From positions 10,577 through 74,576 of the forward strand of contig JABEUV010000011.1 in NCBI GenBank assembly GCA_013044195.1: a stretch of DNA of 64,000 nt. The letters run 5' to 3'. The stretch comes from Elusimicrobiota bacterium (GTDB taxonomy: Bacteria; Elusimicrobiota; Elusimicrobia; UBA1565; UBA9628). The number at the start of each line of letters is the position of its first letter. The first letter of the stretch is position 1. Under the pieces are notes generated by a model. The model saw only the letters and a program-made list of their open reading frames with translations, did no database searches and was not told the DNA's origin. Positions 13,123-54,053 of this stretch are shown here, in pieces. The position numbers and the translations under genes are program-made.

Positions 13123-13123
13123 A

Positions 13124-13615: not shown

Positions 13616-13618
13616 GGC

Positions 13619-18374: not shown

Positions 18375-18889
18375 TGCAGGGACTCCTCTTTGACTTCAAC
18401 GGCACCGGCGTCGCTCAACAAACGACGCAAAGCCTCACCGTCGCCGCCGCGCCTCAGCGCCAGGACGAAGCGGTCGTTGAGGCCGCCCAGGTTCGACAAG
18501 GCCGGGACCTTCTCCGGATTCGGAATCAGCCCGCGCGTGAGCAGGAACGTGAGCACGGACCCCACGGACGCGAACAGAACGGTCAGTTCGAAGCCGATCG
18601 GGATCAGCGCCGGGATGGCCGAGTAGGACTTGCCGCCGATGATCATCGGCCAATCGATGCGCGTGGCCCAATACTCGAAGCTCAGCGCGGTGGCCAAGCC
18701 CGCCGCGCCGAAGCCCAGACACGCCAACGGCAGAAACGACGGCGACAAGCCCATGGCCGTATCCAGGCCGTGCACGGCGAACGGCGTGTAGGCGTCCTGG
18801 ATCGTGAACCCGGCCGCGCGCGCATTCCTGGCGGCGGCGACGATGTCGTGCTCGGTGCGAAAAATTCCGACGACGAGCTCAGTGGCCAT
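18371..18889 (-). CDS. ACIII subunit ActD-like (DUF3341) membrane protein
   Basis: 172 aa, two predicted transmembrane helices, between ActC and the cytochrome as in act operons. Confidence 0.6.
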
Positions 18890-23158: not shown

Positions 23159-23173
23159 GGGTTCCTCAAAGTG

Positions 23174-24268: not shown

Positions 24269-24278
24269 TCTCCGATTC

Positions 24279-36857: not shown

Positions 36858-37859
36858 TCAACGCCCGAACGCGTCGGCCGGAGACGCGCTCAGCTTCTCA
36901 AGCAACGGCGCCACGAACGGCCGCGCCGGCAGGCCGGCCACGGCCGACGCCACGGCGGCCGCCGGGCCGTGCGTCCACGGACCCTGGTTGCAGGCGCCCA
37001 AAGTGTTCGACCAAATCCACTGCACCGTGCTGGTCAGTCCGGAGCCGGTCACGGTGGAGGAGCCTCCGACGCAGAGGTCGGCGACTTCGTTGCCCTGGTT
37101 GTCGTTCCAAGCCTGCGGATAGGAGGGGTTCGACCCATCCGTCGGGAAAGGATCGGTGACGGCCTCGATGAGTTCGTGAGACGTCGTCGACGACAAGCCG
37201 TCGAATCCCGCGCCGCAGCCGACGCCGCCGCACGTGGGCATCACGCCGTAGTAGATCGAGGAGCCGTCGCGCGGAGACTTGAAGCCCTCGTGGTAGGCGC
37301 AGAAGTCCGAGCACGACCCGCCGCCCGTGCTTCCGCTGCCCAAGGAGATGCTGACCCCCGCCGGGAAGAAGATCATATAAAGCGAGTTCGCGTCCGGCTT
37401 GGCCAGCTTGCCCGCCGCGATCTGCGCGTCGAGCTCGGACTGGATCATCGCGTCGGTGAGGTTGGTCGACGCGTTGGCCGGGGTGATCGTCACGCTGCCG
37501 GCGAAGGTCCCGCGCCCGATGGTCTGGTTCGTCCCCGGGCGCCCGTCGACGGCCTTGACGTTCGTGGCGTATTCCGACAGCCAGTCCATGTAGGTGCTGC
37601 CCAGGATGTTGGAGAAAAACGGGCCGACCTGGGACTGGGTCTGGGCATCGACGTTCGGACCCCAGAACACGGCATACACCTTCGCGTTGGAAATGACCGG
37701 GCCGCCGTAATAGAGGACATCATTCACGGCCTCAGCCAAAAACGGGCTGGACGTGCGGGGGCGATTGATCCACAGCGCGTGAGGCGCGGCCGACGCCGAA
37801 GACGACAGCGCGAGCGCGGCGAAAACGGCGACGGCGCGGCGGGTGCAAGTCGAGATCAT
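36858..37859 (-). CDS. Secreted Cys-containing protein of unknown function
   Basis: Signal peptide. Conserved-looking blocks YYGGPVISNAKVYAVFWGP, YMIFFP and CSDFCAYHEG. No confident family assignment. Confidence 0.35.
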   Translation of the reverse strand: MISTCTRRAVAVFAALALSSSASAAPHALWINRPRTSSPFLAEAVNDVLYYGGPVISNAKVYAVFWGPNVDAQTQSQVGPFFSNILGSTYMDWLSEYATNVKAVDGRPGTNQTIGRGTFAGSVTITPANASTNLTDAMIQSELDAQIAAGKLAKPDANSLYMIFFPAGVSISLGSGSTGGGSCSDFCAYHEGFKSPRDGSSIYYGVMPTCGGVGCGAGFDGLSSTTSHELIEAVTDPFPTDGSNPSYPQAWNDNQGNEVADLCVGGSSTVTGSGLTSTVQWIWSNTLGACNQGPWTHGPAAAVASAVAGLPARPFVAPLLEKLSASPADAFGR

Positions 37860-37959
37860 GAGGCCTCCAGGACGGCGTTGGCGATATTATGCCACAGGAT
37901 CGCCGATTTTTGACGCGGGTCAATATTGCCGCGGGCGTCAACTAAGGTAGAATGCGGGA

Positions 37960-38925
37960 ATGAACGACAGCAACCCTTTGGATTTCCACGGTTCGGACCG
38001 CTGGGCCGTCATCTTGGGCGGGTCGTCCGGCTTCGGCCTGGCCACGGCCAAGCGCTTGGCGCGCGCCGGCTTCAACATCCTGATCGGCCATAAAGACAAG
38101 GAAGGCACGGTCGAGAGCGTCATCAAGCCCCACTTCGACGAGATCCGAAAGACGGGCGTCAAGCTGGTCACGCACAACGTCAACCTGTTCGACGACGAAG
38201 GGCGCGGCGAGGTCTTCGAGAGCATCATGACCAACGCCGGCTTGGGCAAGGTCCACCTGTTCATGCAGTCGATCGCGGCCGGCTCCTGCCGCCTGATGAT
38301 CGAGGACAAGACGCCGGATTTCCGCGGCCGCGCCATCCAAGGGCTGGCCGACGCGCTGGGGCTTCCCGCCGAAAAGGTCAAGGCCGCGGTGAACGCCGCG
38401 TTCCACGACAAGGGCTGCGACGCCCTGCACACGCTTGCCGACAGCCGCATCCCCTACCGTGAGGAACTGCTCACGCAGGACGACCTGGCCAAGACCATCT
38501 TCATGATGGGCTACGACTACCTGCTGTGGAGCCGCGAGCTATGTAAGGAAGGCTTGTTCACCAAGGACGCGCGCGTGGTGGCGATGACGTCCGAGGGCAA
38601 CGAGGTGGCGTGGAAGGGCTACGCCGCCGTCTCCGCCGCGAAGACGGCGCTGGAGGCGTCCTGCCGCGCGATGGCCGTGGAGCTGGCGCCTTACGGCGTG
38701 TCCTCCTATATTGTGCAGGCCGGCATCACGGACACGCCCGCCGGCAACGCAATTCCGAACTTCGACTTGATGAAGGCGCAGGCGCGCATCCGCAACCCGT
38801 TCCACCGCCTGACCACGCCCGAAGACATCGCCGAGACGATCCTGGGATTGTGCGGCCCGACTTTGCGCTGGGCCAACGGCACGATCCTGAGGATCGACGG
38901 CGGTGAGGCCATCTCCGGCCTCTGA
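37960..38925 (+). CDS. Enoyl-ACP-reductase-like SDR (FabI/FabL/FabV-like, Y-x6-K)
   Basis: VILGGSSGFGLATA nucleotide fold. Y-x6-K (YAAVSAAK) as in enoyl reductases. First gene of the FAS-like cluster. Confidence 0.55.
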   Translation: MNDSNPLDFHGSDRWAVILGGSSGFGLATAKRLARAGFNILIGHKDKEGTVESVIKPHFDEIRKTGVKLVTHNVNLFDDEGRGEVFESIMTNAGLGKVHLFMQSIAAGSCRLMIEDKTPDFRGRAIQGLADALGLPAEKVKAAVNAAFHDKGCDALHTLADSRIPYREELLTQDDLAKTIFMMGYDYLLWSRELCKEGLFTKDARVVAMTSEGNEVAWKGYAAVSAAKTALEASCRAMAVELAPYGVSSYIVQAGITDTPAGNAIPNFDLMKAQARIRNPFHRLTTPEDIAETILGLCGPTLRWANGTILRIDGGEAISGL

Positions 38926-39935
38926 TGAGCCAACCCTTCTACGTACACGGGATGGGCTGGGCCCTGCCCCAGAACGTGCTCGACGACGACTTCCTCCATA
39001 AAGAAGTCGGCCTGGAAAAAGGCCTGGACTGGAACCGCTCGCGGCTGGGCATCCACCAGCGCTACTCGGTGCTCTCGCGCGACTACATCAAGTCCACCAA
39101 GAACAGGGACCCGCTGGCGGCCATCGCCCACGCGCGCGCTCTCGGCGACACGCCGGTCACCATGGCCGTGCGCGCCGCCCAAGGCGCGCTGGCGCGCGCC
39201 GGCGTCAAGCCGGAGCAGATCGGCATGGTCGTCGCCAACAACGACACCCCGTTCGATCTTCTGCCGACCATGGCCAACTCGGTGGCCAAGGCCCTGGGCA
39301 TCGACGGCGGCCCGCACATCGACGTGAACTCCGCCTGCTCCTCTTTTGCGCGCCACATGAAGCTTCTAGGCGACACCAACGCCGCCGACTGGCCCGACTA
39401 CGTGCTGACCATCCAGAGCTCCGCCTACACCACCCGCACCGACTATTCGCCCAAAAGCATCGACGGCTACATCTGGGGCGACGGCGCCGCCGCCCAGATC
39501 AGCTCCCAGCGCCATCCCGGCCGCCTGCGCGTCGAGCCTCTGATCTTCGGCACCAGCCCCAAGGACGCCAACGCCATCACCGTCGACACCTGCGGCCTCT
39601 TCCGGCAGGACGGTGCTGCCGTGCGCGAGTTCTCCATCCGCAAAACCGTCGAGATGTTCGAGACCATCGCCGCGGCCAAGAAGCTCTACGCCGAGGACGT
39701 CTACACCGTCAGCCACCAAGCCAACTACGTGATGCAGGACTCCATTTTAGGCCACCTGCACCTGCCCCCCGAGCGCCACCTGCGCAACGTCCAAAGCCAA
39801 GGCAACATCGCCGCCGCCGGCGCGCCCTCGGTCATCGCCCAGAACTGGGACAAGTTCAAAAAGGGCGACCAGATCGTCTACGCGGTCCTGGGCGCGGGCC
39901 TGGCGTGGGGCGGCGGGTACATGGAGGTGCTGTGA
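38925..39935 (+). CDS. 3-Oxoacyl-ACP synthase III (FabH-like KAS III)
   Basis: Active-site block DVNSACSSF. C-terminal GAGLAWGG. 336 aa. Confidence 0.85.
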   Translation: MSQPFYVHGMGWALPQNVLDDDFLHKEVGLEKGLDWNRSRLGIHQRYSVLSRDYIKSTKNRDPLAAIAHARALGDTPVTMAVRAAQGALARAGVKPEQIGMVVANNDTPFDLLPTMANSVAKALGIDGGPHIDVNSACSSFARHMKLLGDTNAADWPDYVLTIQSSAYTTRTDYSPKSIDGYIWGDGAAAQISSQRHPGRLRVEPLIFGTSPKDANAITVDTCGLFRQDGAAVREFSIRKTVEMFETIAAAKKLYAEDVYTVSHQANYVMQDSILGHLHLPPERHLRNVQSQGNIAAAGAPSVIAQNWDKFKKGDQIVYAVLGAGLAWGGGYMEVL

Positions 39936-41035
39936 CGGTCGAATCCGTCCCCGACCTCTCCAGTCTGCCGACCGGGTTGCTGCGTCCGTTTCATGAGGTC
40001 CGGCTGGTGCGCTGGGACGAGGCTTCCGGCACGGGACGCATCGAGGTGGTGCGGCGCAACCGTTACGACGATTGGTTTTATGCCTGCCATTTCTTGGGCG
40101 ATCCGGTGATGCCGGGATGCTGGGGGCTTGACGGCGTGTGGCAGGCCTTGCGTTTGTTCGCGGCGTGGCGCGGCCTGTCCGGCAACTTCAAGCCGCTGAG
40201 CATGGAAGGCGTGTCCTTCTTCGGACAAATTCGGCCCCACGACAAAAACGTCGTGTATACGGTCGACGTGCTGTCGATCGAGCGCGACGGAAACGAGGCT
40301 CTGATCACGGCCAAGGCCTGCGTGTGCGTCGACGGCACGCCGGTCTACACGATCGATTCGGCCCAGGTAGGCACGGCGTTCTGGGACAGCGAGCCCGCCG
40401 CCGCGCCCAGCCTGCCCGACGCGCGGACGGAGCCGTATCGCGCCCCGCTGAGCTGGGACGAGTTCTCGCGCCGCGGCGCGTTTTCCGCCCCAGAAGTGAC
40501 CGCGCTGTCGCGCGGCACGCTCGTCAAAGACCCCCCCGGCGAGATGCCGCTTCTGCCCGATTCGCTGATGCTGGAGGTCACCGACGTGCGCCGCATCGTC
40601 GCCGATCCCGCCTCCGGCGAGGGCGAGGTGCTGGCCACGCGCGCCAACGGGCCCGACGAATGGTTCTTCCCCATGAACGCGGGGGTCAAGCCCGCGGCCT
40701 TGCTGGTCGACGGCGTGTGGCAGTTGATGGGCGTGTTTCACGCGTGGATCGGCTCCGCGGGCACCGGCCGCGCGCTGGGCTTCGAGCGCGTCGACTTCTT
40801 CGGCGAGGTGACGCCGCGCGACGCGCGCCTGGACTACCGCCTGCGCATACTCAAGTCCGTGCGCGCGCCCAACGGCGACGTGTTCGTGCGCGCCGACGCG
40901 GAGATTTTCGCCGGCGGACGCCGGATACTGTCCTGCGCGAACGCCAACGTGGGCTGTCACAAGAACATCCGCTATGCGGACTATCCGGTCGCCTCCGAGA
41001 TGGGCTTCGGCGGCAAACTCAAGATCAAGGAATAA
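39932..41035 (+). CDS. Double-hotdog FabA-like 3-hydroxyacyl-ACP dehydratase
   Basis: GTGA-coupled start. First hotdog carries the FabA active-site block CHFLGDPVMPGCWGLDGVWQ. Second degenerate hotdog (FFPMNAGVKPAALLVDGVWQ). Confidence 0.7.
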   Translation: MTVESVPDLSSLPTGLLRPFHEVRLVRWDEASGTGRIEVVRRNRYDDWFYACHFLGDPVMPGCWGLDGVWQALRLFAAWRGLSGNFKPLSMEGVSFFGQIRPHDKNVVYTVDVLSIERDGNEALITAKACVCVDGTPVYTIDSAQVGTAFWDSEPAAAPSLPDARTEPYRAPLSWDEFSRRGAFSAPEVTALSRGTLVKDPPGEMPLLPDSLMLEVTDVRRIVADPASGEGEVLATRANGPDEWFFPMNAGVKPAALLVDGVWQLMGVFHAWIGSAGTGRALGFERVDFFGEVTPRDARLDYRLRILKSVRAPNGDVFVRADAEIFAGGRRILSCANANVGCHKNIRYADYPVASEMGFGGKLKIKE

Positions 41036-41037
41036 CC

Positions 41038-41763
41038 ATGGCCGATATCGCGGTGGTGACGGGAGGCTCGGGCGGGATCGGGGCGGCGATCGCGAAGATG
41101 ATCCACGCCAAGTCCGACGGCCAATTGACCGTCTGCATTCACTACAACGGCAACGAGGCCGCGGCCAAGGCGGTCGCGGCCGAAATCCCGGGCTCGTTCA
41201 TCGTGAAGGCCGATCTCTCCACCGGCGAAGGCCGCAAGGCCCTTTTGGACGCCGTGCTGGCGAAAGGCACGCCGTTTTGTTTGATCAACAACGCCGGCAT
41301 CGACAAGCCGCACGAACCGGCGCTGATGGTCGACGAGGCGTCGTTCGACAAGATCATCAACACCAATCTGCGCGCGCCGTTGTTTCTGATGCGCGACTTC
41401 GCCAAGGAAATGGCGCGCAACGAGGCGGGCGTCATCGTCAACATCTCCTCGGTGCTGGCGCGCAAGGCCGTGATCGGCTCCGCGCTGTATCGCGCCTCCA
41501 AGGCCGCGCTGGAGGCGCTGACCATGCAGTTCGCCGCCGAACTGGGCCCCAAGGGCCTGCGCGTGGTCGCCGTGGCCCCCGGCTTCATCGAGACCGCCAT
41601 GACCGCGGGCATCCCTGAGGACCAGCGCGCGGGCATCAAGAAGGACGTGGCGCTCGGCGCCTTCGGCTCGCCCGACGCCGTGGCCGAGACCGTGTGGCAC
41701 GCCGTCGAAAACCAATACCTCAACGGTGCCGTGATCGCCGTGGACGGAGGAATGCACCTCTAA
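41038..41763 (+). CDS. 3-Oxoacyl-ACP reductase (FabG-like SDR)
   Basis: VVTGGSGGIGAAIA, NNAG, and catalytic S...YRASKAAL. Confidence 0.85.
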   Translation: MADIAVVTGGSGGIGAAIAKMIHAKSDGQLTVCIHYNGNEAAAKAVAAEIPGSFIVKADLSTGEGRKALLDAVLAKGTPFCLINNAGIDKPHEPALMVDEASFDKIINTNLRAPLFLMRDFAKEMARNEAGVIVNISSVLARKAVIGSALYRASKAALEALTMQFAAELGPKGLRVVAVAPGFIETAMTAGIPEDQRAGIKKDVALGAFGSPDAVAETVWHAVENQYLNGAVIAVDGGMHL

Positions 41764-42251
41764 TGACGATCTTGAACCCCGCCGAAGTCTTGAAGATGAT
41801 TCCGCAGCAGCGCCCCATGCGCTTCGTCGACGACATTCTGGAGCTCGACGACGAGCACATCCTCGGCACCTACACGTGGAAGGACGAGGACTGCGAAGGC
41901 CACTTTCCCGGCTACCCGGTGGTGCCCGGCGTCAAGCTCATCGAGATGGCCGCGCAGGTGGGCTCGGTGGGCTGGTGCATCTACCATATCGCCAAGACCG
42001 TGAGCCCCGCGGAGATCAGCCAGCTGGTGGGCTTTTTCACCTCGGTGGAGAAAGCCGTCTTTAAAAAGCCCGTGCGCCCCGGCGAGCGCGTAATCGCGCA
42101 GGCGAGCTTCGGCGACGCCGGCTATTTCCGCGGCAACAAGCTGGTCAGCGAAGTCGAGATTCAGTTCCACGGCGGACCGAAGGACGGGGAGACCGTATTC
42201 CTCGGCACCACCGCCGGCATGTTCGTGCCGAAGAACACGGAGGGAAATTGA
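41763..42251 (+). CDS. 3-Hydroxyacyl-ACP dehydratase FabZ-like
   Basis: GHFPGYPVVPGVKLIEMAAQ active-site motif. 162 aa. Confidence 0.85.
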   Translation: MTILNPAEVLKMIPQQRPMRFVDDILELDDEHILGTYTWKDEDCEGHFPGYPVVPGVKLIEMAAQVGSVGWCIYHIAKTVSPAEISQLVGFFTSVEKAVFKKPVRPGERVIAQASFGDAGYFRGNKLVSEVEIQFHGGPKDGETVFLGTTAGMFVPKNTEGN

Positions 42252-43561
42252 GCTTTCCGAAACGAATCGTCGTCACCGGTCTGGGCGTCGTCGCACCCAA
42301 CGGGCTGGGCCTGGAGGCCTACCGCGCCGCACTGAAGGCCGGCAAGTCCGGCATCTCCCATCACGAGGAGCTCAAGGCCTTGAACTTCGCCTGCCAGATC
42401 GGCGGCAAGCCGCCGGTCGGCCCCGACGAGGCCGAGGCGCTGATTCCCGAGGCGGACCTCGCCAAGCTCAACGAGGCCATGGTCTACGCGACCATGGCCG
42501 CCGTCGAGGCCGCGCGCATGTCGGGCGTCAGCATCGACCTGAAGAAAGGCTATCAAGACACGCCCGTGGACTGGGACACGGGTGCTATCATCGGCTGCGG
42601 CATCGGCGGCATGGACACGATGCTTGATGAACTTGGTCCGGTGATGAGCCAAGCCGCGGACGGAGAACCCGGCATGGGCTGCCGTCCGATGGGCACCGAT
42701 ATCGTGCCCAAGATCATGGAGAGCTCGGTCTCCGTCGCGGTCGGCAAGTTCCTGGGACTGGGCGGACAGACGACGACGAACTCCTCCGCCTGCAACACGG
42801 GAACCGAAGCCATCTTCGAGGCCTTCAAGCACCTCCAGATGGGCTACGGCGAATCCATGTACGCCGGCGGCGCCGAGGGCACGCACGCGGGCACCTGGTC
42901 GGGCTTCGACGCCATGCGCGACGTGCTGTGCTCCAAGTTCAACGACATGCCCGAGAAGGGCTCCCAGCCCATGGGCGCCGGCGCCTGCGGCTTCGTTCCG
43001 GCCGGCGGCGCGGGCGTGGTGCGCCTGGAGACCTTGGAGCACGCGCAGAAGCGCGGCGCCAAGATCTTGGTCGAGCTGGTCGCCGCCTATTGCAACTCCG
43101 GCGGCCAGCGCGACGGCGGCACCATGACCTTCCCCAACCCGGACGGAGTCGCGCGCTGCATCCGGCGCGTGCTCAAGGACTCCGGCGTGGACCCCAAGCG
43201 CATCTCCCTCATCAACGGCCATCTGACCTCCACCGGCGCGGACCCGCGCGAGGTCGGCTCTTGGATCAAGGCGCTGGAACTGCCTTTGGACAAGTTCCCG
43301 CTGATCCAGTCCACGAAGTCCATGATCGGACACACGTTGGGTGCGGCCGGGGCGCTGGAGTCCGTCGCCGCGATCGACCAGTTGGTCCACGGCTACGTGC
43401 ATCCGTCGATCAACTCCGAGAACGTTCATCCCCAGATCCCGATCGGCGCGAGCATTCCCCACGAAATGAAGATCAAGGAGCTCGAGTACGTGGTCAAGGC
43501 CAGCTTCGGCTTCGGCGACGTCAACGGCTGCCTGCTCTTCAAACGCTGGGACGGCAAGTGA
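42248..43561 (+). CDS. Beta-ketoacyl-ACP synthase I/II (FabF/FabB-like)
   Basis: RIVVTGLGVVAPNG N-terminus. Cys block SSACNTGTEA. His blocks GHLTSTGA and IGHTLGAAG. TTG start overlapping the fabZ stop. Confidence 0.85.
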   Translation: MSFPKRIVVTGLGVVAPNGLGLEAYRAALKAGKSGISHHEELKALNFACQIGGKPPVGPDEAEALIPEADLAKLNEAMVYATMAAVEAARMSGVSIDLKKGYQDTPVDWDTGAIIGCGIGGMDTMLDELGPVMSQAADGEPGMGCRPMGTDIVPKIMESSVSVAVGKFLGLGGQTTTNSSACNTGTEAIFEAFKHLQMGYGESMYAGGAEGTHAGTWSGFDAMRDVLCSKFNDMPEKGSQPMGAGACGFVPAGGAGVVRLETLEHAQKRGAKILVELVAAYCNSGGQRDGGTMTFPNPDGVARCIRRVLKDSGVDPKRISLINGHLTSTGADPREVGSWIKALELPLDKFPLIQSTKSMIGHTLGAAGALESVAAIDQLVHGYVHPSINSENVHPQIPIGASIPHEMKIKELEYVVKASFGFGDVNGCLLFKRWDGK

Positions 43562-43600
43562 TATAATTCCGGTTCTAGCCCGCACCCAGGAGAAACCATC

Positions 43601-44500
43601 ATGGCATTCATGCGCAAACAGGCGGTCGTCGAGGCGACGGACATCAACACTTTGCCCCCCGACGAGGTGGAGAAGCGGATCACGGCCGGCGTCAAGAAAT
43701 ACGCAACCAACGAGGCGAACTTCGCCAAGGCCGACGGCAACACGCCCTACCTGGGCCAGATCGTCGGCATGGGCATCGAGTCGTCCAACCTGGCCGACAT
43801 CACCATGTCCATCGAGCGCCAGTTCCTGACCAAGCTCACCACGAAGGTCCCCCTCGCCGACGGCTCGGCCGAGTACAAGCTGGCCCCCGGCGAACTGGGC
43901 AAGCTGCGCATCCTCGACGGCCAGGACGCGCTGGCCGCGACCCCGGGCCTGTCGGTCAAGATGCTCATGGACCTGGGCCATATGCCGTCCTCTGCGTCGT
44001 ATCTCGATAAAGTCGTCTCGTTCGCCTACATCATGGCCTGCGGCGACGGCTGGAAGATGGCCGACGCGCTCAAGAAGATGACCGCGAAAGCCGAGAAGCT
44101 GGCAGGTGCTGAGCGCGCCGACGCGCTGTCCAACGTCAAGACCCTCGCCGCACAGGCCAAGGACTACGACACTCTGCTGGCCGACGCGGCCAAGCTCTCC
44201 GCCGCCAAGCAGAAGACCTACCTGAGCGACAAGGCCTCCTGCGACGCGCTCGACAACGAACTCAACGTCGTGCTCGACAAGATCAAGGGCCACTCCGGCG
44301 GCGACGCCGCCGCGATCGCCAAGCTGCGCACCGAGGAAGCCGAAGTCCGCACCCGCCTCAAGATGTCCGCGGCGAAGCTGCGCGTCTCCAAGGACGTGGC
44401 CGAGGCCGCCGGTCGGCGCCGACCCATTGAGGACCAGAAAGTCGCCGAGGTCCGCAAGGCCCTCCAGGAGGCCGTCGCCGCGGCCCAGACGCTCGCCTAA
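43601..44500 (+). CDS. Hypothetical protein within the FAS-like cluster
   Basis: 299 aa, Ala/Lys-rich and predicted helical. No motif recognised. Confidence 0.3.
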   Translation: MAFMRKQAVVEATDINTLPPDEVEKRITAGVKKYATNEANFAKADGNTPYLGQIVGMGIESSNLADITMSIERQFLTKLTTKVPLADGSAEYKLAPGELGKLRILDGQDALAATPGLSVKMLMDLGHMPSSASYLDKVVSFAYIMACGDGWKMADALKKMTAKAEKLAGAERADALSNVKTLAAQAKDYDTLLADAAKLSAAKQKTYLSDKASCDALDNELNVVLDKIKGHSGGDAAAIAKLRTEEAEVRTRLKMSAAKLRVSKDVAEAAGRRRPIEDQKVAEVRKALQEAVAAAQTLA

Positions 44501-44501
44501 G

Positions 44502-45908
44502 ATGGCGCTGACGCCCGAGGACATCCAAAGCCTCCGGCGACAGCGCCTGATCAGCCGCGCGGTCGCCGTTCCGCTGTCGTTGTTCGTGGCGGTGACCGCG
44601 CGGCTTCGCTTTCGCTACGGCCTGGCCGACGCCGCGCGCCTGCGCGCGGAGATCTGGGCCAAGCTCGACGCTCACGACGGACCGGTCATCTGGGCGGCCA
44701 ACCACCTGACCTTGATCGATTCCTTCCTGGTCTACTGGGCGATCTTCCCCCTGTCGCGCGTGCTGGAAGACCGCCTGATTCCCTGGTCCACGCCCGAGTA
44801 CACGAACTACTACAAGCTGGGCGGCCCCTTCAAGGCGGCCTTCATCCGCGCGCTGCTCTACTGCTGCCGCTGCGTGCCGTTCCTGCGCGGCGGCGAGGAC
44901 GCGGCCTCCGAGGCCTGGCGTCAGAAAGCCTACGACAAATGCGTCTGGCTCCTGCGCCAAGGCGGCTCCGTGTTCGTCTACCCGGAGGCCGGCCGCTCGC
45001 GCTCCGGCTGGTTCGAGGCGCGCCGCCCGAAGGATTTTCTCGGCCGCATGGCCATCGACGTCCCCAACGCGAAAATTCTGTGCGTCTACCTGCGCGCCGA
45101 TGGACAGTTGGCCACCACCGTGCGGCCGCCCGAAGGCTCCGTGTTCCGCGTGCGCTGCGACCTGATCGACGGCACGCGTCCCGGCGAGACGAACCCGCGC
45201 GAAGTCTCCCAGCGCCTGTTCGACCGCATCGCAGCACTTCAGAACGAGTGGTGGCGCGACTGCCCCTTGCCCAAGAACTGCGCCGGCAACGACGTCGTCG
45301 ACCTGAAAGCCCCCCTTCTCCAGGAAAATTTTTCCGAGGACCTGTCCGACGCCGACCCCGAGTGGCTGGAACGCCACCTGACGCCCCGCGAGCTGGCGGG
45401 CCTGCGCGCCAAGTCCGGCGTGGAGTTCTTCCGGACCTTTTGGCGCGTGTTCGCCGCCAAGGAAGCCTGCCACAAGGCCTTGGCGCGCGCGGGACTGACC
45501 ATACCCAACGGCGCATTTTGCGAACTGGAGGTCGACTTGTTCCGCCGCAAGGCCGCGCACGTCCCCACCGGCCTCCAGCTGGACCTGCGCTTCACCGACG
45601 ACGACGAGGACAAGCTTCACTGCTTGGCCGTCCTGCGCGGCGGCTTCATCGGCGACGAGACCGCCGAGGGCGACGCCGTCTGGGACGTCTGCGAGGCGCC
45701 GCCCGGCGTTGCCCCCGGCGCCTTCGCCCGCGAGCGCGCGCTGGAGTTCATCGCCTCCTGCAACGACGAGCTGGGCGGCCCCACCGCCCTTGCCCTGTCC
45801 GAGGACGGCGGCCTGCCGACCGTCCTCTGGCGCGGCAAGCCCCAGGACTGGAGCTTGACGCTGTCGCACTCGGGCCGCTACGCCGCCTGCGCCTTCATGG
45901 TCTCGTAG
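44502..45908 (+). CDS. Fusion: lysophospholipid/glycerol-phosphate-type acyltransferase (LPLAT) + AcpS-type 4'-phosphopantetheinyl transferase
   Basis: N-terminal half has the acyltransferase HX4D box (ANHLTLIDS) and VFVYPEAGRS. C-terminal ~170 aa has PPTase motifs GNDVVDL, FAAKEACHKA and LSHSGRYAACAF. Confidence 0.7.
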   Translation: MALTPEDIQSLRRQRLISRAVAVPLSLFVAVTARLRFRYGLADAARLRAEIWAKLDAHDGPVIWAANHLTLIDSFLVYWAIFPLSRVLEDRLIPWSTPEYTNYYKLGGPFKAAFIRALLYCCRCVPFLRGGEDAASEAWRQKAYDKCVWLLRQGGSVFVYPEAGRSRSGWFEARRPKDFLGRMAIDVPNAKILCVYLRADGQLATTVRPPEGSVFRVRCDLIDGTRPGETNPREVSQRLFDRIAALQNEWWRDCPLPKNCAGNDVVDLKAPLLQENFSEDLSDADPEWLERHLTPRELAGLRAKSGVEFFRTFWRVFAAKEACHKALARAGLTIPNGAFCELEVDLFRRKAAHVPTGLQLDLRFTDDDEDKLHCLAVLRGGFIGDETAEGDAVWDVCEAPPGVAPGAFARERALEFIASCNDELGGPTALALSEDGGLPTVLWRGKPQDWSLTLSHSGRYAACAFMVS

Positions 45909-46321
45909 GCGCTACGGCCTCCGTGAAAACCCGATAGCCGCGCGAGATGCGCCGGGCTCTTCTTCCATCGATATGCGCCCGACGGCCTTTACGAGAGGAT
46001 AATACGTCGCTGAACAGGTTCCACGCGTCCAGGAAGGTCACGCAATTCAACGAGCTCTTGCGGGGACGATTTAGCCAAGAAACGAGCGCGTCAATGTCCA
46101 GCGGCTTACGATTGGCCTGCGCAGAAACTTTGAGTCCGTGCTTCGCGGCATAACGACGCCGTCCGCGGAAAGCCGATCGCCCTCCCGCCAAATCAACGCA
46201 CGGATGACCCCATTGAGACGATATTTATACGGGAAATGATTTGCCAGGCCGTCGCGCATCCCTTTCGTCCGAACCATTGAGGCAGTATATCCCCCACGCC
46301 TCCTCTGTGTCGATGCCGAAT

Positions 46322-46367
46322 ATCCCTGTATATTCAGACCTCTAAAATAGACTAAATATACAGGGAT
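46322..46367 (+). promoter_or_regulatory. Perfect 13-bp inverted repeat (ATCCCTGTATATT-N20-AATATACAGGGAT) overlapping the start codon of the XRE regulator
   Basis: Arms at 46322-46334 and 46355-46367. The right arm ends inside the ATG at 46366. AT-rich relative to the surrounding sequence. Confidence 0.4.
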
Positions 46368-46737
46368 GGGACGACAGACTTACGTCGCGCTGCCGGACAG
46401 GCAGGCGCTCAACAAGACGCTGCTGTTCGCCAAAGACGCGCCTACCGCTGCGGGGCAGCCGGCGCGGGTGTATGTGCGCGCGCTCCGGGCCGCGCTGAGG
46501 ATGACGCAAGCACAGCTTGCGCGGCGAGCCGGGGTAGCCAAATCGCACGTGGCGCTCATCGAAGCCGGTACCGCGAACGTCGGCGTCGAAACGCTGCGCA
46601 AGGTCTTCGACGCGATGTTTTGCGACCTTCTGGTCATCCCTAAGCCGCGCAAAAAACCGACGCAGGCGCTGGCGGAGCGCGAACTCGAACGTCTGAGGGA
46701 GCCGCGATATTACGAAAAGCGCGGACCCTGGGATTGA
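46366..46737 (+). CDS. XRE-family (Cro/C1-type HTH) transcriptional regulator
   Basis: LRMTQAQLARRAGVAKSHVALIEAG helix-turn-helix. Confidence 0.75.
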   Translation: MGRQTYVALPDRQALNKTLLFAKDAPTAAGQPARVYVRALRAALRMTQAQLARRAGVAKSHVALIEAGTANVGVETLRKVFDAMFCDLLVIPKPRKKPTQALAERELERLREPRYYEKRGPWD

Positions 46738-46751
46738 GGTAGAATATCGCC

Positions 46752-47702
46752 ATGAATGAGGCATTCCTGGCCGCGGCGCTGGCGGTTTTCCCGGGCGCGG
46801 ACCGGAATATGGCCTTGCCCGATCCGCCGCCCTTGCCGCCGGCGTGGGTCCAGGGCACGTTCGCGGCCGAAGACGGCACGCCGCTGAACTACGAATACCG
46901 TCCCGGCAGCGGCCCGGCCGTGGTGCTGGTGCACGGGCTCGGCATCGGCGCGGACGGCTTCGACGGCTGGCGCGGCTTCTTCGCGGGGCGGCCGCTGATG
47001 ATCTTGGAGCGGCGCGGCTACGGCTCGCCCATGGGCTTGGTCGACGCGACCGACGTGGGCGCCGTCAACCAGGCCGACGTCTCCGCGGCCGTCGACGAGG
47101 CTCTGCGTCTGGACGGCGGCCAACCCGTCGGCGTGCTCGGTTACTCGCTGGGCGCGCTCCTGCTGACCGCGCCGGACCCCGCGCGCGTGCGCTGGCTGGC
47201 GCTGGTCTGCCCGGGCGTGCCGGGCATGGCCGCCGACCTGCCGGCGGCCGAACAGGCCCTGGCCGCGCAGACGCGCTACTGGTATGGAGTGGCGAGCGCC
47301 GGCGGAACGGCCGCGCGGGATTCCTGGCTCATGTCGGTCGTCGCACCGGGAGTCCTGGAACTGGCGACGACCGCGCGCGGGCTGGGCCTCTCGACGGCCG
47401 CCGACGAGGTGACCGCCGATGCGGCTTCGCCCGATTTTCTCAACCTCTACACCGAGGAGTCTCTCTGGGCATACGCCCAGACTCACGGCTTTACGCCCAA
47501 CCCCGGCGTGCCGGTGTTCGTCGGCTACGCCGAGAATGACCTTGTCGTGCCCCCGGCGGCCGTCCAAAGCCGCGTCGGACGGCTGGAATCCCAGGGCGCG
47601 CACGTCAGCGTCGCGCATTGGCCCGGCGACCACCTCGACGCTCTCGCCCATCCGGGACTGGTGCGCTCCGCGCTTGAGTCCTTCGACGCAGGAACTCCAT
47701 GA
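46752..47702 (+). CDS. Alpha/beta-fold hydrolase (possible thioesterase/esterase)
   Basis: VVLVHGLG oxyanion region, nucleophile elbow GYSLG, C-terminal His region (WPGDHLDALAHP). Confidence 0.7.
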   Translation: MNEAFLAAALAVFPGADRNMALPDPPPLPPAWVQGTFAAEDGTPLNYEYRPGSGPAVVLVHGLGIGADGFDGWRGFFAGRPLMILERRGYGSPMGLVDATDVGAVNQADVSAAVDEALRLDGGQPVGVLGYSLGALLLTAPDPARVRWLALVCPGVPGMAADLPAAEQALAAQTRYWYGVASAGGTAARDSWLMSVVAPGVLELATTARGLGLSTAADEVTADAASPDFLNLYTEESLWAYAQTHGFTPNPGVPVFVGYAENDLVVPPAAVQSRVGRLESQGAHVSVAHWPGDHLDALAHPGLVRSALESFDAGTP

Positions 47703-48643
47703 GCCAAAAAGTCTGCGCGCTGTTCGCCGGCCAGTCCGTCCAAGAAACCGGCATGGGCGTCGAATTGCTCAAGCGCCCCACCGCGCGCGCCGTCATCGAG
47801 CGCCTGAAGCCCTCCCTCGGCCAAGACCTGGAGGCCTTGCTGACGACGACGCCCGACGACGACCTGGCCAAGACCTTCAACGCCCAGCGCGCCATTCACG
47901 CCTCCCACGTGGCGCATTGGCTGACTTGGCGCGCGGCTCATCCGGAAGCGGAGCTTGACGGCGCGATCGGGCATTCGATGGGCGTGGTCGCGGCCCTGGT
48001 CGCCGCCGAGGCGCTCACCGTCGAGGACTCCGGCGTCTTCATCGCCGCCCGCGCGAAGGCCTTCGCGGACTGCTGTGCGGCGTTCTCCGAGCCCATGGGC
48101 CTGGCCGCGGTGAGCGCCGACGACTTCAACGAGGTCGCGCAGTCCGTCAATGAGGTCCCCGGGGTTTCCGTCGCTCTGTGGAACACCGTGGGCCGAGGCA
48201 CGCTCGGAGGCACGCTCGCGGCGCTGGAGGCCTATGCCGCCAAGGCGCGCGACGAGGACTGGCCGGTCAAGGTCAAGATATTGAAGGTGGAAGGCCCCTA
48301 TCACACCGCCGCCTTCGCGCCCGCGCAGGTCCCCCTGGGCGCCGTGCTGGCGCGACTGGACGTCCGGCCGCCGAAGGTCCCCGTGTTCATGGGCACCTCC
48401 GGCAGCGCGGAGACGGACCCGGCGCGCATCAAGGAACTGCTGGCCGAGCAAACCGTCGCCTGCGAACGGCATCTCGACGCGGTACGCGCGGCCTACGCCG
48501 CGGGATGCCGAAACTTCGTCGAGGTGTCCTTCAAACCCCAGCCCGTGACCTGGCTGGCGGAGCAGTTGATCGGCGAGGACGGCGCGAAACTGCCCGGCGT
48601 CGAGGGCCGCGCCGTTCCCACCTCGGAACTCCAGGCAGGATGA
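47699..48643 (+). CDS. Malonyl-CoA:ACP transacylase-like acyltransferase (FabD-like AT)
   Basis: ALFAGQSVQETGMG and GHSMGVVAAL (GHSxG). ATGA-coupled to the hydrolase gene. Confidence 0.7.
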   Translation: MSQKVCALFAGQSVQETGMGVELLKRPTARAVIERLKPSLGQDLEALLTTTPDDDLAKTFNAQRAIHASHVAHWLTWRAAHPEAELDGAIGHSMGVVAALVAAEALTVEDSGVFIAARAKAFADCCAAFSEPMGLAAVSADDFNEVAQSVNEVPGVSVALWNTVGRGTLGGTLAALEAYAAKARDEDWPVKVKILKVEGPYHTAAFAPAQVPLGAVLARLDVRPPKVPVFMGTSGSAETDPARIKELLAEQTVACERHLDAVRAAYAAGCRNFVEVSFKPQPVTWLAEQLIGEDGAKLPGVEGRAVPTSELQAG

Positions 48644-49436
48644 TCGACATCATATGGATGATTCGGCTCTCCCAGCCCCGTAAATCCAGAACGCGGCCGA
48701 CAAGACGCACGGGCTCGCCGTAGCTGTCGCGGCACTTGATGGCGTAAATCGGCTGCTCGGCCGGATAGCTCGCCTCGATACGCCCGCAAAACTCACCGAA
48801 CCTGCCTCGGGAAACTATTGTGTCTACGCCGAAGAGGATGACGGGCATTTCTGGAGCAAGAACTTTCGGATTGTTGACGGTTTCGTCGGCGTTGCAGACG
48901 AGAAATCCATTCGATAAGACCCCCATCAAGTCGCTGGCCTCCACGAGAATATGGTCGACGGCCGACACCCCGGGAAGAACGCGGCACTCGTAACCGTTCT
49001 TTCGGCAGTAATTCAGGACATGCAAGCCGTCGCTGAAGACGGCCGGGTGTCCATAGGTCACATATGTCACTTTCTTGCCCTTCTTCAATTCGACGCAGAT
49101 GTCGCGAGCGACGCTTTTGATCTTCTCCTCGTTGCCGAGGGACTCGAATTTCGCGCCATGGAACAAACGAACGTCGACGCAGAAAGTCCGAAGAAACGGC
49201 AGCAACCGCTCTCCGTCTCCGTGCATATAGAAAAGAATCTCGCTGTCCTTGAGCGCCTGGATCGTCCCCAACGTGACATCTTGAGGCCGATCAATTCCCA
49301 CGCCGCATACGGTCAAACATCCGCCCGCGACCGCCGCCTTCGGATTGGACGCGCGCACTCGCCGACTCACAGCAGAAACCCCATGACGTTCTCTCCCTTC
49401 ATGACCCACGCCAGAAAAAATCCAAGAAAAATCCAA
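48531..49436 (-). CDS. Tetrapyrrole-methylase-superfamily SAM-dependent methyltransferase (start uncertain; a GTG near 49358 is possible)
   Basis: N-terminal CLTVCGVGIDRPQDVTLGTIQALKDSEILFY (GxGxGxxD..LT..A...L..AD.(L)Y) and a second motif VTYVTYGHPAVFSDG. 3' end overlaps the FabD-like gene on the opposite strand. Lower GC than neighbouring genes. Confidence 0.45.
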   Translation of the reverse strand: MDFSWIFSGVGHEGRERHGVSAVSRRVRASNPKAAVAGGCLTVCGVGIDRPQDVTLGTIQALKDSEILFYMHGDGERLLPFLRTFCVDVRLFHGAKFESLGNEEKIKSVARDICVELKKGKKVTYVTYGHPAVFSDGLHVLNYCRKNGYECRVLPGVSAVDHILVEASDLMGVLSNGFLVCNADETVNNPKVLAPEMPVILFGVDTIVSRGRFGEFCGRIEASYPAEQPIYAIKCRDSYGEPVRLVGRVLDLRGWESRIIHMMSIILPGVPRWERRGPRRRAVSRRPRRSTAPPARSRAGV

Positions 49437-50755
49437 AAAGCGAACGAAATAGTCGGAGTCAACGGTATCATTTCGACGCCGTTACGGGCGCACCATTCCT
49501 GGAGCGCCTGCGCTTGGCTGGGCGTCAATCCATCCGCATAGAGGCGCGAAAAATGCTCCTCGAAGAATTCGGCGTCCTGCCGCAGACGTTCGATAAAGCC
49601 GGGCGCCAACACGGAATACGACGAGACTTCGCCGATGGCGCTCGGGAGAACTTCATGGTCCCAAAGGCGGACCAGGACCAAGCTCAATCCAAAAAATACC
49701 CCCATCGCGGCAAGCGCCAGAATCGTGCGCTCGACGGCATAAGGAACGGCGATGACCCGCATCACCGCCGCGCACGCCCCGCCCAGAAGCGGCAGCGCGA
49801 TCGTCAAGACGGAAGCGGCGCCGACGCTGCCCGTCAAGACCAGCATCGTCCACCGCGTGCCCAATTGGATGAACATGCTGAATATCGAGAGATCGAGTAA
49901 TATCCGCCACACATCCATCCAATGCGTCGGCGGACGAATAACGACCAACGCGACGCCCAAGACCCCGAGGAGCAACCGGCAATAATTGGCCCCGATCACT
50001 ACGGAAAGTCGGTTCCATAAGACGAATACGACCCCCCAAAACATGGTGAAGAGTATCGGCGAGCTAAAGAAGCCTTTTAAGTAATAGGAAAACAGCGACA
50101 GGGCGAGCATCTGCAGCCCCTGCAGAGCCGCAAAGCCCGCGAAAGCGCCCGGCTGTGCCGCGATCGAACGAATGGATCGAGCCGCTTTTATGCGCCAGGA
50201 CTCGGGCGTACCGATTGCTTCGCGCAGGCTGTCGTAAATAAAATGAACTGCTTTTCCCCATCCCAACTGAATAAAAAAATGGCGTCGATGGCTCAGGCGC
50301 GTTGAATAAACATAATGCAGCGCCCTCAGGAAGACCGCGATGCTCGCCGGGATAAACGTGTTGATCAGCGCGATCAGAAACAACCGCCGCCCATAACTAG
50401 GCCCCCCCAAAGTCGTCAGCGGGTACAAGGCGGCAAGCAGAAGAAATAATTTCGCATCGCCCGCGGGCCAGACGCCGAACCACCATAAAGCGCCCGCCGC
50501 CGTCGCGCATAGAAAAACATTCGACAAGGCCTCCCGGTAAAATATTCCTCGGGGGAACACCTCGATCCAGCGCAATCCGCCGAGGATGCTCATCACCAGC
50601 AGGATCAAATACGCGCACGCGATGATCCTGGCGCTGGAACGCAGGAATTGATTGCGTATTTTTTGATGGGTGTAGTCGTTCCAACCCACCACGATCCAAA
50701 GATAAAAGAAAAAGGCGGCCATCGCGGCCTGTACGGCCGTCAATGCGGCGCTCAT
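49367..50755 (-). CDS. Polytopic membrane protein with prepilin-peptidase (A24)-like GDAKL motif, function unknown
   Basis: About 12 hydrophobic helices. WWFGVWPAGDAKLFLLLAALYP resembles the second catalytic-Asp motif (GGDVKL) of type IV prepilin peptidases. Start set at Met 50755 (ATGA-coupled to the upstream TPR gene). Lower-GC gene. Confidence 0.4.
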   Translation of the reverse strand: MSAALTAVQAAMAAFFFYLWIVVGWNDYTHQKIRNQFLRSSARIIACAYLILLVMSILGGLRWIEVFPRGIFYREALSNVFLCATAAGALWWFGVWPAGDAKLFLLLAALYPLTTLGGPSYGRRLFLIALINTFIPASIAVFLRALHYVYSTRLSHRRHFFIQLGWGKAVHFIYDSLREAIGTPESWRIKAARSIRSIAAQPGAFAGFAALQGLQMLALSLFSYYLKGFFSSPILFTMFWGVVFVLWNRLSVVIGANYCRLLLGVLGVALVVIRPPTHWMDVWRILLDLSIFSMFIQLGTRWTMLVLTGSVGAASVLTIALPLLGGACAAVMRVIAVPYAVERTILALAAMGVFFGLSLVLVRLWDHEVLPSAIGEVSSYSVLAPGFIERLRQDAEFFEEHFSRLYADGLTPSQAQALQEWCARNGVEMIPLTPTISFAFWIFLGFFLAWVMKGENVMGFLL

Positions 50756-53700: not shown

Positions 53701-54045
53701 GTCGTACGACCGAGAGGCTCCAGGTTCGCACGGCTCCGCGGTCCAACGCCATGCCCACGCCGCGTCGCAGCCGCGATCCAAGCGCAACGCCGCGTCGAAT
53801 TCCCTCCGGGCTTCGCGGGCGCGTCCCAAATAATGAAGGATCCGCGCTCGCGCGACGCATTCCTCCGCGGACGATCCGCGCGAACGCTCGAGGGCGCGCT
53901 CATAGCGCGGTCGATAGCGGACCCCGTGACGCCGCAGAATATAGCGCGAGGAGCGCGACACCAGCTTCGACTGCCAGAGCGCGATGAGGCGATCAGCCCC
54001 CAGCTCGCGCAGGAGCGCCGCAGCACTCGATCCCATTTCAGCCAT
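50752..54045 (-). CDS. Giant TPR-repeat protein (~1100 aa, WRG-type TPR family)
   Basis: More than 20 TPR-like 34-aa units with a recurring AWAWRGEAK...A..D..RALALDP pattern. Start trimmed to Met 54045 to avoid overlap with the radical SAM gene. Confidence 0.75.
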   Translation of the reverse strand: MAEMGSSAAALLRELGADRLIALWQSKLVSRSSRYILRRHGVRYRPRYERALERSRGSSAEECVARARILHYLGRAREARREFDAALRLDRGCDAAWAWRWTAEPCEPGASRSYDGIDRAIALAPRRALWRAFRGIAKTVEFMDARSADVRRPLADLQKALEIDSRCVPALVAAGMALYNAGERKQAEGYFDRALAEEPDTAFLLAFRSACRIERGDLRGYLSDCESAVYADEGVGYFQNAGGRSSGAVTVAEKIMAVSRYLARHPRAYWMYVYRGDYKRAPEVNDQNGGRRDLEKAVELKPDCAYGWAYLSRSRLMQGDSSAAMEAVNRAVLLKPSCGWILCWRGEIKRLRGDQKGALCDLNRGLRLDPDYELGYAWRGGAKRGLGRPAQALVDFALASSLDPRHAWTLQEQSLALRQLGDVGAALEKLEAAHRLDPKYSWCGGTPDQFAAASAQLDEEIRAHPRNSWAWAWRGEAKLRKADYAGAVADMDRALALDGGLGWVRAWRGGALLELGSIRRALKDCDRALRLEPSYAYAYAWRGRARHLLGDSAGALTDLRRAVELNRMTSWIFLWKGEAEDRLGLAKEAEEDFGASLAIDRNHVAAMLARAALRQRCNNDVGVREDLERALAAQRDDPRVNFRLGVLNEREGRWGEARSNFAQALSGADRLTREELRVARRFAKLGAAASADLVLKALRHVRRSAENGLHLEAAATCDEILRVDGSCEEALRFRAEAYRCSGDYDKHVADLDRLLELSPRRPDLWCKRGAGRRISGDFSGALDDALSALKLRPDDPAPAHMLASEALRNLGRLPEAVASATDAIAAQPELAWAYVVRGKAHRQNGDSAGALLDFRRAARLDPSDAKARGWEADALRRDGRLREAEAAARAAIDLEPTCAWAVALCGEINRELGRIKAGFDLVRRAVKLDGNCSCAYDFLGADPPHVWRDSRYAWVYAWRGGIHRKRERWEAARRDLDHAVELDADCYWARAWLGELKLVRGDVRGALAEFAQVLGAHDAYQDAWTWQGRAYCEQKRWRPALSSFMKALSLDAADPWALIGASACLEKLRRASAAAKYRERAMSVAPGLFAGESRLAA

Positions 54046-54053
54046 CGCGCCTA

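Follow-up and report, generated by a model that had tools for sequence, protein, structure and literature searches.

Acyl carrier protein (ACP) is among the most conserved and most connected proteins of bacteria: enzymes of fatty-acid, lipid A, phospholipid, lipoate and biotin metabolism recognise it, and its small size, its acidic helix II, the recognition element in the standard type II fatty-acid synthase (FAS), and its DSL motif are treated as near-universal recognition rules. The mycobacterial FAS-II operon (fabD-acpM-kasA-kasB-accD6), which only elongates the products of a type I FAS, encodes the carrier AcpM, which keeps the DSL motif, is acidic, is recognised by the Pfam PP-binding family and carries a disordered C-terminal extension of ~35 residues. 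Rhizobial AcpXL is a canonical ACP of normal size; its cluster is devoid of β-ketoacyl-ACP synthase (KAS) III, acyltransferase (AT), enoyl reductase (ER) and phosphopantetheinyl transferase (PPTase), depends on the primary FAS and has lipid A as its acceptor. Mitochondrial ACP (~85 residues, acidic, DSL) is also a structural subunit of larger complexes, and the myxobacterial polyunsaturated fatty acid (PUFA) synthase Pfa3 carries a C-terminal AGPAT domain. Pfa systems are multidomain megasynthases with a ketosynthase-chain-length factor pair (KS-CLF), 3-9 tandem canonical ACPs and a PfaD-type ER (PMC3098273, PMC9667614). Here we analyse a stretch of 64,000 nt from contig JABEUV010000011.1 of an Elusimicrobiota bacterium (the window), which contains a cluster of FAS-like genes around a 299-residue protein, CP300, a putative atypical carrier.

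The best explanation of this cluster, to which we give a probability of roughly 55%, is a complete dissociated type II FAS (positions 37960-45908 and 47699-48643) that uses CP300 as its carrier and is probably the main membrane-lipid FAS of a clade of Elusimicrobia. The two parts of this reading differ in strength. That CP300 is the carrier of this FAS is very likely; granted this, the odds that the system is the main FAS of its clade are even or slightly better. All coordinates refer to positions in the window, and related loci are numbered from L001 onwards.

With the canonical type II FAS, the cluster shares the six catalytic activities and their active-site motifs, a FabA-type beside a FabZ-type dehydratase (DH), a carrier gene with its own promoter inside the cluster, and AcpS-like motif order in the PPTase. 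In contrast to the canonical carrier of ~78 residues with its DSL motif, CP300 is much larger and departs from ordinary ACPs by a GIES motif in place of DSL, a β-hairpin insertion, a near-neutral recognition helix and a basic helical bundle of 155 residues. Moreover, the enzymes other than FabA reach only ~35-58% of the family cut-offs, the PPTase is fused to a PlsC-type acyltransferase, and FabA is a covalent tandem. Like the AcpM system, the locus combines a dedicated carrier bearing a C-terminal extension with AT, KAS and, in the relative L002, a carboxylase, whereas the folded 155-residue bundle and the fused PPTase-acyltransferase have no counterpart there. The AcpXL/LpxXL very-long-chain cluster likewise joins a FAS-like set to a dedicated carrier and a dedicated lipid acyltransferase, but the CP300 cluster, unlike it, has its own KAS III, AT, ER and PPTase. 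Tandem FabA-like hotdogs and the physical coupling of an acyltransferase to the synthase (in myxobacteria) recall Pfa systems; in contrast, the activities here lie on separate proteins and the tandem halves resemble free-standing FabA. None of these closest analogues (AcpM, AcpXL/LpxXL and the AGPAT-bearing myxobacterial PUFA synthase) has the architecture of the CP300 system. No description of the CP300 carrier or of the fusion of a lysophospholipid acyltransferase (LPLAT) with a PPTase was found in Pfam, NCBIfam or the literature searched, and the main text and supplements of a genomics paper on Elusimicrobia (10.1101/765248) do not cover fatty-acid synthesis or acpP.

The carrier assignment draws first on the predicted structure of CP300. 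In the full-length AlphaFold2 model (family alignment as input; predicted local distance difference test, pLDDT, 92.5; predicted template-modelling score, pTM, 0.86), a helix at residues 20-30 and a long loop precede a helix at 61-74, which begins exactly at Ser61. C-terminal to it lie a β-hairpin (75-101), short helices and five long helices (141-298); the ACP-fold domain comprises residues ~15-140. A Foldseek search with the full-length model returned only coiled-coil and pore-forming/BAR-type matches, none of them significant. Because this search was swamped by coiled-coil proteins, residues 1-145 were modelled alone (pLDDT 86.6), and the five best matches of this domain in the PDB are all carrier proteins, with template-modelling (TM) scores, normalised to the target, of 0.60-0.74. 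They comprise human mitochondrial ACP (9n50_C; probability 0.99, TM 0.74, root-mean-square deviation 2.5 Å), the ACP of complex I (6zr2_U; probability 0.97, TM 0.70), 9pra_Af, 6ynx_Q and the aminoacyl carrier protein 4h2w_C. CP300 thus shares, on its predicted structure, the four-helix carrier fold of PF00550 with mitochondrial ACP (NDUFAB1; 9n50_C and 6zr2_U, TM 0.70-0.74 normalised to the ACP), whereas sequence identity amounts to only 16% and the mitochondrial protein is smaller, acidic and has DSL.

The position and conservation of one serine agree with this fold. Ser61 stands at the N-terminus of helix II, where PF00550 carries its attachment serine, in the motif GIES-S instead of G(A)DS-L, and residues 56-75 (GMGIESSNLADITMSIERQF) resemble by eye the ACP motif GxDSLxxVELVMxxEExF. 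The CP300 family has 231 matches, nearly all of ~300 residues and, where named, from Elusimicrobia, and an exhaustive search of 1.84 billion cluster representatives yielded only 26 clusters at 50% identity; CP300 itself occurs, with 100% identity, as a hypothetical protein in an Elusimicrobia metagenome-assembled genome (MAG). Among 63 aligned sequences, down to 24% identity, only six positions are invariant, and Ser61 (GMGIES61S) is one of them, within 20 surrounding residues that are nearly invariant. Sequence comparisons give weak support that points the same way. Aligned by hhalign to nine canonical ACPs, the N-terminal part of the family places Ser61 on the DSL serine (E = 0.029, probability 1.7%). 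A hidden Markov model (HMM) of the same nine ACPs was run against 13,229 open reading frames (ORFs) of at least 45 residues, taken from the window and from 73 related loci. Of its four best matches, the first, second and fourth are CP300 homologues, aligned in one register with Ser61 on the DSL serine; the homologue of L002, which has no hairpin, aligns over positions 4-75 of the 81 in the model.

Several results weigh against the carrier assignment. By the sequence methods applied here, CP300 does not match any PP-binding family significantly: Pfam gives nothing even at E ≤ 10, including the PF00550 profile, NCBIfam likewise gives nothing, and neither phmmer nor a profile search finds anything meaningful among PDB sequences. 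The HMM E-values of the CP300 homologues (1.6-8.7) are not significant, the Foldseek E-values are weak (0.095-2.3), and the structure compared is a prediction. Further, with its 299 residues, an overall isoelectric point (pI) of 8.6 and GIES for DSL, CP300 is to our knowledge unlike any characterised ACP. CP300 could instead be a structural, scaffolding, membrane-binding or regulatory protein with an ACP-like helical domain, its neighbouring enzymes working with a canonical AcpP encoded elsewhere or with CoA thioesters, in line with the view of the initial annotation that the cluster has no ACP gene. The negative sequence searches agree with this reading, as do the non-acidic surface and the long helical bundle, which makes up more than half of the protein and accounts for the non-significant coiled-coil and pore-forming/BAR-type matches. 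We nevertheless regard it as improbable, since the carrier fold is the top structural match of the N-terminal domain, the one serine matching the phosphopantetheine site never varies and its surroundings hardly do, the next gene after CP300 encodes a PPTase in every locus whose contig extends that far, including those with no acyltransferase half, and CP300 has its own promoter inside the enzyme operon. With CP300 as the carrier, Ser61 would be its phosphopantetheinylation site, as the adjacent PPTase gene suggests.

CP300 also falls outside the usual description of ACPs as small acidic proteins (70-100 residues with an acidic helix II). The pI is 5.4 for the ACP-like domain and 9.2 for the C-terminal bundle, compared with 4.05 for E. 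coli AcpP, and helix II contains two acidic and two basic residues and is thus net neutral. A near-neutral helix II implies that the partner enzymes have co-diverged with their carrier, which fits the low scores of FabD, FabF, FabG, FabH and FabZ against their equivalog models. The hairpin of ~27 residues, C-terminal to helix II, is missing from the shortest homologues. The basic C-terminal bundle possibly serves to tether the carrier to a membrane or a complex, with an anionic membrane or the fusion protein as conceivable partners.

A second line of evidence comes from the region directly upstream of CP300. The internal promoter-like site (Table 1), which is sigma-70-like, is followed by a strong Shine-Dalgarno sequence, AGGAGA, between it and CP300. 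A TAnAAT hexamer lies 16-50 nt 5' of the CP300 start in 52 of the 70 related loci, as compared with 1% of random 35-nt windows from the same loci and 0-3% of the regions upstream of the other six cluster genes, although these and several other comparative counts come from related loci and are not independent events, which lessens their weight. The -10 element is kept even where the upstream gene differs. In E. coli, acpP within the fab cluster likewise has its own promoter, and a separate promoter for CP300 would fit a carrier that is needed stoichiometrically and in abundance.

Gene order among relatives links CP300 to the PPTase. One genome per GTDB species was scanned, and the window proteins were then compared with the loci found by tblastn. 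CP300 occurs at 71 loci in ~68 species with a G+C content (GC) of 40-75%, almost all labelled Elusimicrobia, with a few labelled Acidobacteriota, Planctomycetota or simply "bacterium". The common order is ER, KAS III, [tandem FabA], 3-ketoacyl reductase (KR), DH, KAS I/II, CP300, LPLAT/PPTase and, after 0-8 kb, AT. A PPTase-containing gene lies directly 3' of CP300 in every locus where the contig continues, and AT follows 0-8 kb downstream of it in most. The LPLAT-PPTase family (156 matches, essentially all from Elusimicrobia) and the CP300 family are co-extensive. In the divergent loci L066, L069 and L070, and in a second copy in L072, the PPTase half alone comes after CP300 and is followed by AT, while in L044-L050 CP300, LPLAT/PPTase and AT form a triad away from the enzyme genes; in L050 this triad is surrounded by genes for Tol-Pal, PBP1, PmbA and phosphoribosyl pyrophosphate (PRPP) synthetase. 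Together, the stand-alone PPTases and the separate triads define the invariant core of the system as carrier, PPTase and loading AT.

The same comparison shaped our view of what belongs to the system. The initial annotation had counted the XRE-family regulator and the hydrolase among its members. Both genes are present in the window, but an XRE homologue occurs near the cluster only in L004 and the hydrolase only in the close relatives L003 and L051; neither is conserved, and they are thus not parts of the system. The XRE protein shows a weak resemblance to "mobile mystery protein A", and the hydrolase may be an accessory thioesterase or lipase. The fusion gene and the XRE gene are 457 bp apart, GC being lower (58-60%) in this gap, and in relatives the interval between PPTase and AT is filled by unrelated genes, marking it as a variable insertion spot.

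A few loci deviate in detail. In the complete genome CP096137.1 (L001/L027, 5461-6428), whose cluster has no tandem FabA, the ER gene is split into two ORFs (181 and 141 residues), by either a frameshift or an assembly error; the cluster is otherwise intact. CP300 clusters are also present in MAGs labelled Acidobacteriota (L045, L066) and Planctomycetota (L072), labels that could reflect mis-binning, mislabelling or real transfer. L069 and L070 come from "uncultured bacterium" contigs of Mb size with 43% GC and have no KAS III in the cluster, and in L072 CP300 is followed by a full LPLAT-PPTase as well as by a separate PPTase.

All genes that the initial annotation had listed, from ER to the FabD-like AT, were found again, and Pfam/NCBIfam domain matches together with inspection of the translations show catalytic motifs that look intact. 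Each activity of a type II FAS (KAS III, AT, KR, DH, ER and KAS I/II) is a separate protein with its catalytic residues in place, and the first eight genes are tightly packed, with overlaps of 1-4 nt or short gaps as read off the sequence. ER carries the Yx6K motif (YAAVSAAK, from the translation) and is 55-97% identical among the related loci. The Cys-His-Asn triad of KAS III (NSACSS, HQAN, GNIAAAG) and the Cys-His-His triad of KAS I/II (SSACNTG, NGHLTST, GHTLGAAG) are intact, AT has the nucleophile motif GHSMG, and the FabZ-like DH has its His and Glu in HFPGYPVVPGVKLIEMAAQ. Its ORF spans 41694-42251, with ATG 41763 as the likely start, where TAATG overlaps the KR stop. An ORF at 40974-41618 was discarded as the KR gene, as it contains no domain. 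This supports the claim that the set is nearly self-sufficient for elongation and loading and owns a PPTase and a PlsC-type acyltransferase.

These enzymes score far below the NCBIfam equivalog models, with FabD, FabF, FabG, FabH and FabZ at ~35-58% of the respective cut-offs. In detail, ER reaches 108 bits against FabL (cut-off 328); KAS III 142 bits against PRK09352 (249) and 104 against FabH (292); KR 169 bits against TIGR01830 (298); the FabZ-like DH 66 bits against PRK00006 (113) and 60 against FabZ (155); KAS I/II 271 bits against TIGR03150, the FabF model (494); and AT 115 bits against TIGR00128 (261). FabA alone passes (PRK05174, 196 vs 124 bits), summed over its two halves.

The fusion protein downstream of CP300 combines two recognisable domains. 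Its PlsC-type half (PF01553, 33.5 bits, cut-off 23) contains the HX4D motif as HLTLID together with PEAGRS, which is (F)PEGTR-like, as expected of PlsC/LPLAT enzymes, and its PPTase half (PF01648, 29.7 bits, cut-off 25) contains GNDVVD, FAAKEACHK and LTLSHSG, in the AcpS-like order and in agreement with the Mg-binding and catalytic motifs of the superfamily, GxD ... (F/W)xxKE(A/S)xxK. Against PDB sequences, the fusion protein gave no match. A hydrophobic stretch at the N-terminus (AVAVPLSLFVAVTA) suggests that the PlsC-like half is probably anchored in the membrane.

The tandem FabA was the basis for the earlier proposal of a dehydratase of the PUFA-synthase type, which did not hold up. Its first half shares 38% identity with E. 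coli FabA and has both His70 and Asp84 (CHF...GLD); the second shares 30%, and a three-residue deletion removes Cys-His-Phe while the Asp is kept (VD). In the PDB, the best matches are FabA of E. coli and of P. aeruginosa. As each FabA active site forms between the two subunits of a dimer, the tandem protein should amount to a fused pseudo-dimer in which one site is complete and the other dead: the pairing of His70 and Asp84 across the hotdog interface occurs once, as an intact composite site, and the other site is degenerate. The complete site should consist of the His of half 1 and the Asp of half 2. The family (185 matches, the named ones from Elusimicrobia) lies inside the cluster in only 11 loci and is often solitary elsewhere in the genomes of relatives, for instance amid aromatic amino-acid genes of the assembly that also contains L032.

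Two further observations concern the dehydratases. In RBG_16_66_12 (L075, 2519-2998), a solitary tandem FabA is followed by an ApeP-like hotdog protein of 159 residues and ABC-2 transporter genes. In identity to that of the window, the FabZ-like DH reaches 72-96% in most loci with the tandem FabA inside the cluster, and 45-56% in close relatives with ER and KAS identities of 82-92%; these two classes may reflect a paralogue swap linked to the position of FabA.

It is very improbable that the cluster works like a PUFA synthase or an aryl-polyene cluster and yields a polyunsaturated, polyene or other polyketide-like product. "Tandem FabA" DH domains are a recognised feature of PUFA synthases (PMC9667614, PMC9702510), the DH proteins of relatives give weak ApeP-like and ApeI-like Pfam matches, and an LPLAT is present. 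These points are outweighed by an ER with Yx6K as the first gene of the operon, by a lone elongating KAS whose Cys-His-His triad is complete and which lacks a CLF partner, and by the absence from the cluster of tandem ACPs, a PfaA-like multidomain protein and a PfaD-type ER. Moreover, among both sequence models and crystal structures the tandem protein matches FabA and not the DH domains of polyketide synthases, and it is missing from the clusters of most relatives. Membership among the PUFA synthases was rejected on the single-function proteins as well: the PfaA models, with a cut-off of 1010 bits, reach 43 and 72, owing to weak local similarity to KS and AT. Aryl-polyene clusters have KS-CLF-type synthases, two ACPs, an ApeI/ApeP pair of DH proteins and an LPLAT, but no ER. 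The suggested comparison with them leads no further, as the locus has an ER, a single Cys-His-His KAS and no canonical ACP, and only the LPLAT is common to both.

The complete FAS with CP300 as its carrier would work as follows. The PPTase half of the fusion would attach phosphopantetheine to Ser61 of CP300, the FabD-like AT would load malonate onto the carrier, and KAS III would start the chain, which KR, the FabZ-like DH, the FabL-like ER and KAS I/II would extend. Where present, the tandem FabA would divert a medium-chain intermediate to the cis-enoyl form, allowing anaerobic synthesis of monounsaturated fatty acids. Finally, the PlsC-like half would move the finished acyl chain, the putative product, from CP300 to a lyso-glycerolipid as the putative acceptor.

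Whether this FAS is primary or accessory is the more delicate question. The initial annotation had called the cluster accessory and distinct from the housekeeping fab operon. It is indeed not a textbook operon, given the low scores of FabG, FabD, FabF, FabH and FabZ, but the evidence leans away from "accessory". The cluster provides a complete de novo set including KAS III, ER and AT. In L002, the most distant member (40% GC), a gene for an 1833-residue biotin carboxylase-biotin carboxyl carrier protein-carboxyltransferase (acetyl-CoA carboxylase, ACC) adjoins the cluster; a tblastn search of all loci with the L002 ACC found it beside the cluster in no other locus. Between the window and L001, the cluster proteins are 53-89% identical, as compared with 39-48% for shared flanking genes. 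The cluster shows no GC anomaly, and for this and for the conserved synteny in ~68 species we rejected its horizontal acquisition; we infer vertical inheritance within a clade of Elusimicrobia, across genomes of widely different GC. Likewise, the separate triad and the solitary tandem FabA of relatives are embedded among housekeeping genes.

The statement that the cluster has no ACP stands in one respect: the HMM found no significant canonical ACP in the window and the 73 loci, ~1.2 Mb in total and ~20 kb per genome. It fails in the other, in that the 299-residue gene, with its predicted ACP fold and its invariant Ser61, is very probably the carrier. A scan of the main window ORFs showed no acc or fab genes outside the cluster, and the 10 kb of source contig to the left of the window contain an LpxL-type gene and no fab genes.

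Part of the evidence runs counter to a primary role. A dedicated PPTase, AT and acyltransferase are also what an insulated secondary pathway is expected to have. At the left edge of the window, moreover, lies a partial ORF for an LpxL/HtrB-type lipid A acyltransferase (PF03279), extended in L076 (9060-10004), which implies that the organism makes lipid A and needs an acyl-carrier donor; LpxL-type homologues normally take ordinary acyl-ACP. CP300 could thus be a dedicated carrier of an orthogonal accessory pathway that operates beside an AcpP-based FAS and places a specialised lipid on a lysolipid through its own PlsC-like acyltransferase, which is in essence the proposal of the initial annotation with a carrier added. 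Systems such as AcpXL/LpxXL of rhizobia or the aryl-polyene clusters are typically insulated from primary metabolism, and ownership of PPTase, AT, carrier and acyltransferase would agree with it, as would the strong divergence of the enzymes, given that the primary Fab proteins of most phyla pass equivalog cut-offs. We consider this pathway less likely than a primary FAS, in view of the full de novo set, the adjoining ACC of L002, vertical inheritance across 40-75% GC, conservation much above that of flanking genes, the housekeeping neighbourhoods of triad and tandem FabA, and the lack of a canonical ACP in the related sequence covered, ~20 kb per genome. The most far-reaching form of the primary-FAS reading, a clade of ~68 Elusimicrobia species (40-75% GC) that has no conventional AcpP and runs both primary membrane-lipid synthesis and lipid A acyl supply on CP300 with a re-tuned Fab set, is tentative, and we place it somewhat below even odds.

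Should CP300-bearing genomes have no canonical AcpP, this would be the first lineage-wide replacement of the bacterial ACP, and in a free-living lineage. A carrier of this type would escape annotation pipelines, so that metabolic reconstructions from genomes would wrongly score these organisms as having no ACP. The system would further offer a natural experiment in the co-evolution of a carrier with about eight partner enzymes, and an orthogonal set of carrier, PPTase and enzymes for lipid engineering. Judging from the PPTase-PlsC fusion and the helical bundle, the FAS might be tethered to the membrane and its synthesis coupled directly to phospholipid assembly. Even as an accessory system, the locus would add both a new family of carriers and an orphan lipid pathway to a phylum about which little is known.

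Table 1. Features of the window discussed in the text, in order of position.
Feature	Position	Strand	Length (residues)	Basis or remark
LpxL/HtrB-type lipid A acyltransferase	1..663	+		PF03279
Alternative-complex-III-like respiratory gene set	8838..24307	-
Secreted-protein gene, upstream neighbour of the operon	36858..37859	-		third-position GC 0.89
Promoter-like site TTGCCG-16-TAGAAT	37926..37953	+		consensus scan only; in the 100-bp gap before the first operon gene
ER, short-chain dehydrogenase/reductase (SDR) type, best match FabL	37960..38925	+	321	PF13561 1e-31, PF12241 43 bits
KAS III (FabH-like)	38925..39935	+	336	PF08541/PF08545
Tandem FabA	39905..41035	+	376 as ORF	two FabA stretches, PRK05174; start uncertain
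KR, FabG-like SDR	41035..41763	+	242	PF00106 1e-42
FabZ-like hotdog DH	41763..42251	+	162	PF07977
Elongating KAS I/II	42248..43561	+	437	PF00109/PF02801
Internal promoter-like site TTCAAA-18-TGnTATAAT	43538..43567	+		directly 5' of CP300; scan, 10/12 matches
CP300, "unknown", putative atypical acyl carrier protein	43601..44500	+	299	predicted fold, invariant Ser61, gene context
LPLAT-PPTase fusion	44502..45908	+	468	PF01553, PF01648; likely start ATG 44502
Gap between fusion gene and XRE gene	45909..46365
XRE-family helix-turn-helix regulator	46366..46737	+		PF01381
Alpha/beta hydrolase	46752..47702	+	316	PF12697/PF00561; overlaps AT start
FabD-like AT	47699..48643	+	314	PF00698 4e-28
Stretch of lower GC	48600..58000
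Tetratricopeptide repeat (TPR) protein	50752..54339	-	1195
Radical SAM gene	54054..55226	-
Tryptophan-halogenase-like FAD domain-TPR fusion	59368..61830	-	~786-820

The window has a G+C content of 64-72%, and an Rfam scan of it gave no match. Left of the LpxL-type gene, the contig encodes a FadL-type (Toluene_X) outer-membrane protein and a HicAB pair. The alternative-complex-III-like gene set comprises two NrfD-like membrane subunits, 4Fe-4S proteins, two molybdopterin-oxidoreductase-like proteins and multi-haem cytochromes, including a protein of 786 residues with seven cytochrome c domains; such a set fits the "lineage IV" groundwater Elusimicrobia (10.1101/765248). Downstream of the cluster, GC falls to 55-65%, compared with 65-72% elsewhere, and third-position GC is lower as well. 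This stretch, which may be acquired DNA, contains a truncated-looking TP_methylase-like ORF and two ORFs with no recognised domain, in addition to the large TPR protein and the radical SAM gene. Near the right end of the window, an unusual fusion joins a tryptophan-halogenase-like FAD domain to C-terminal TPR repeats.

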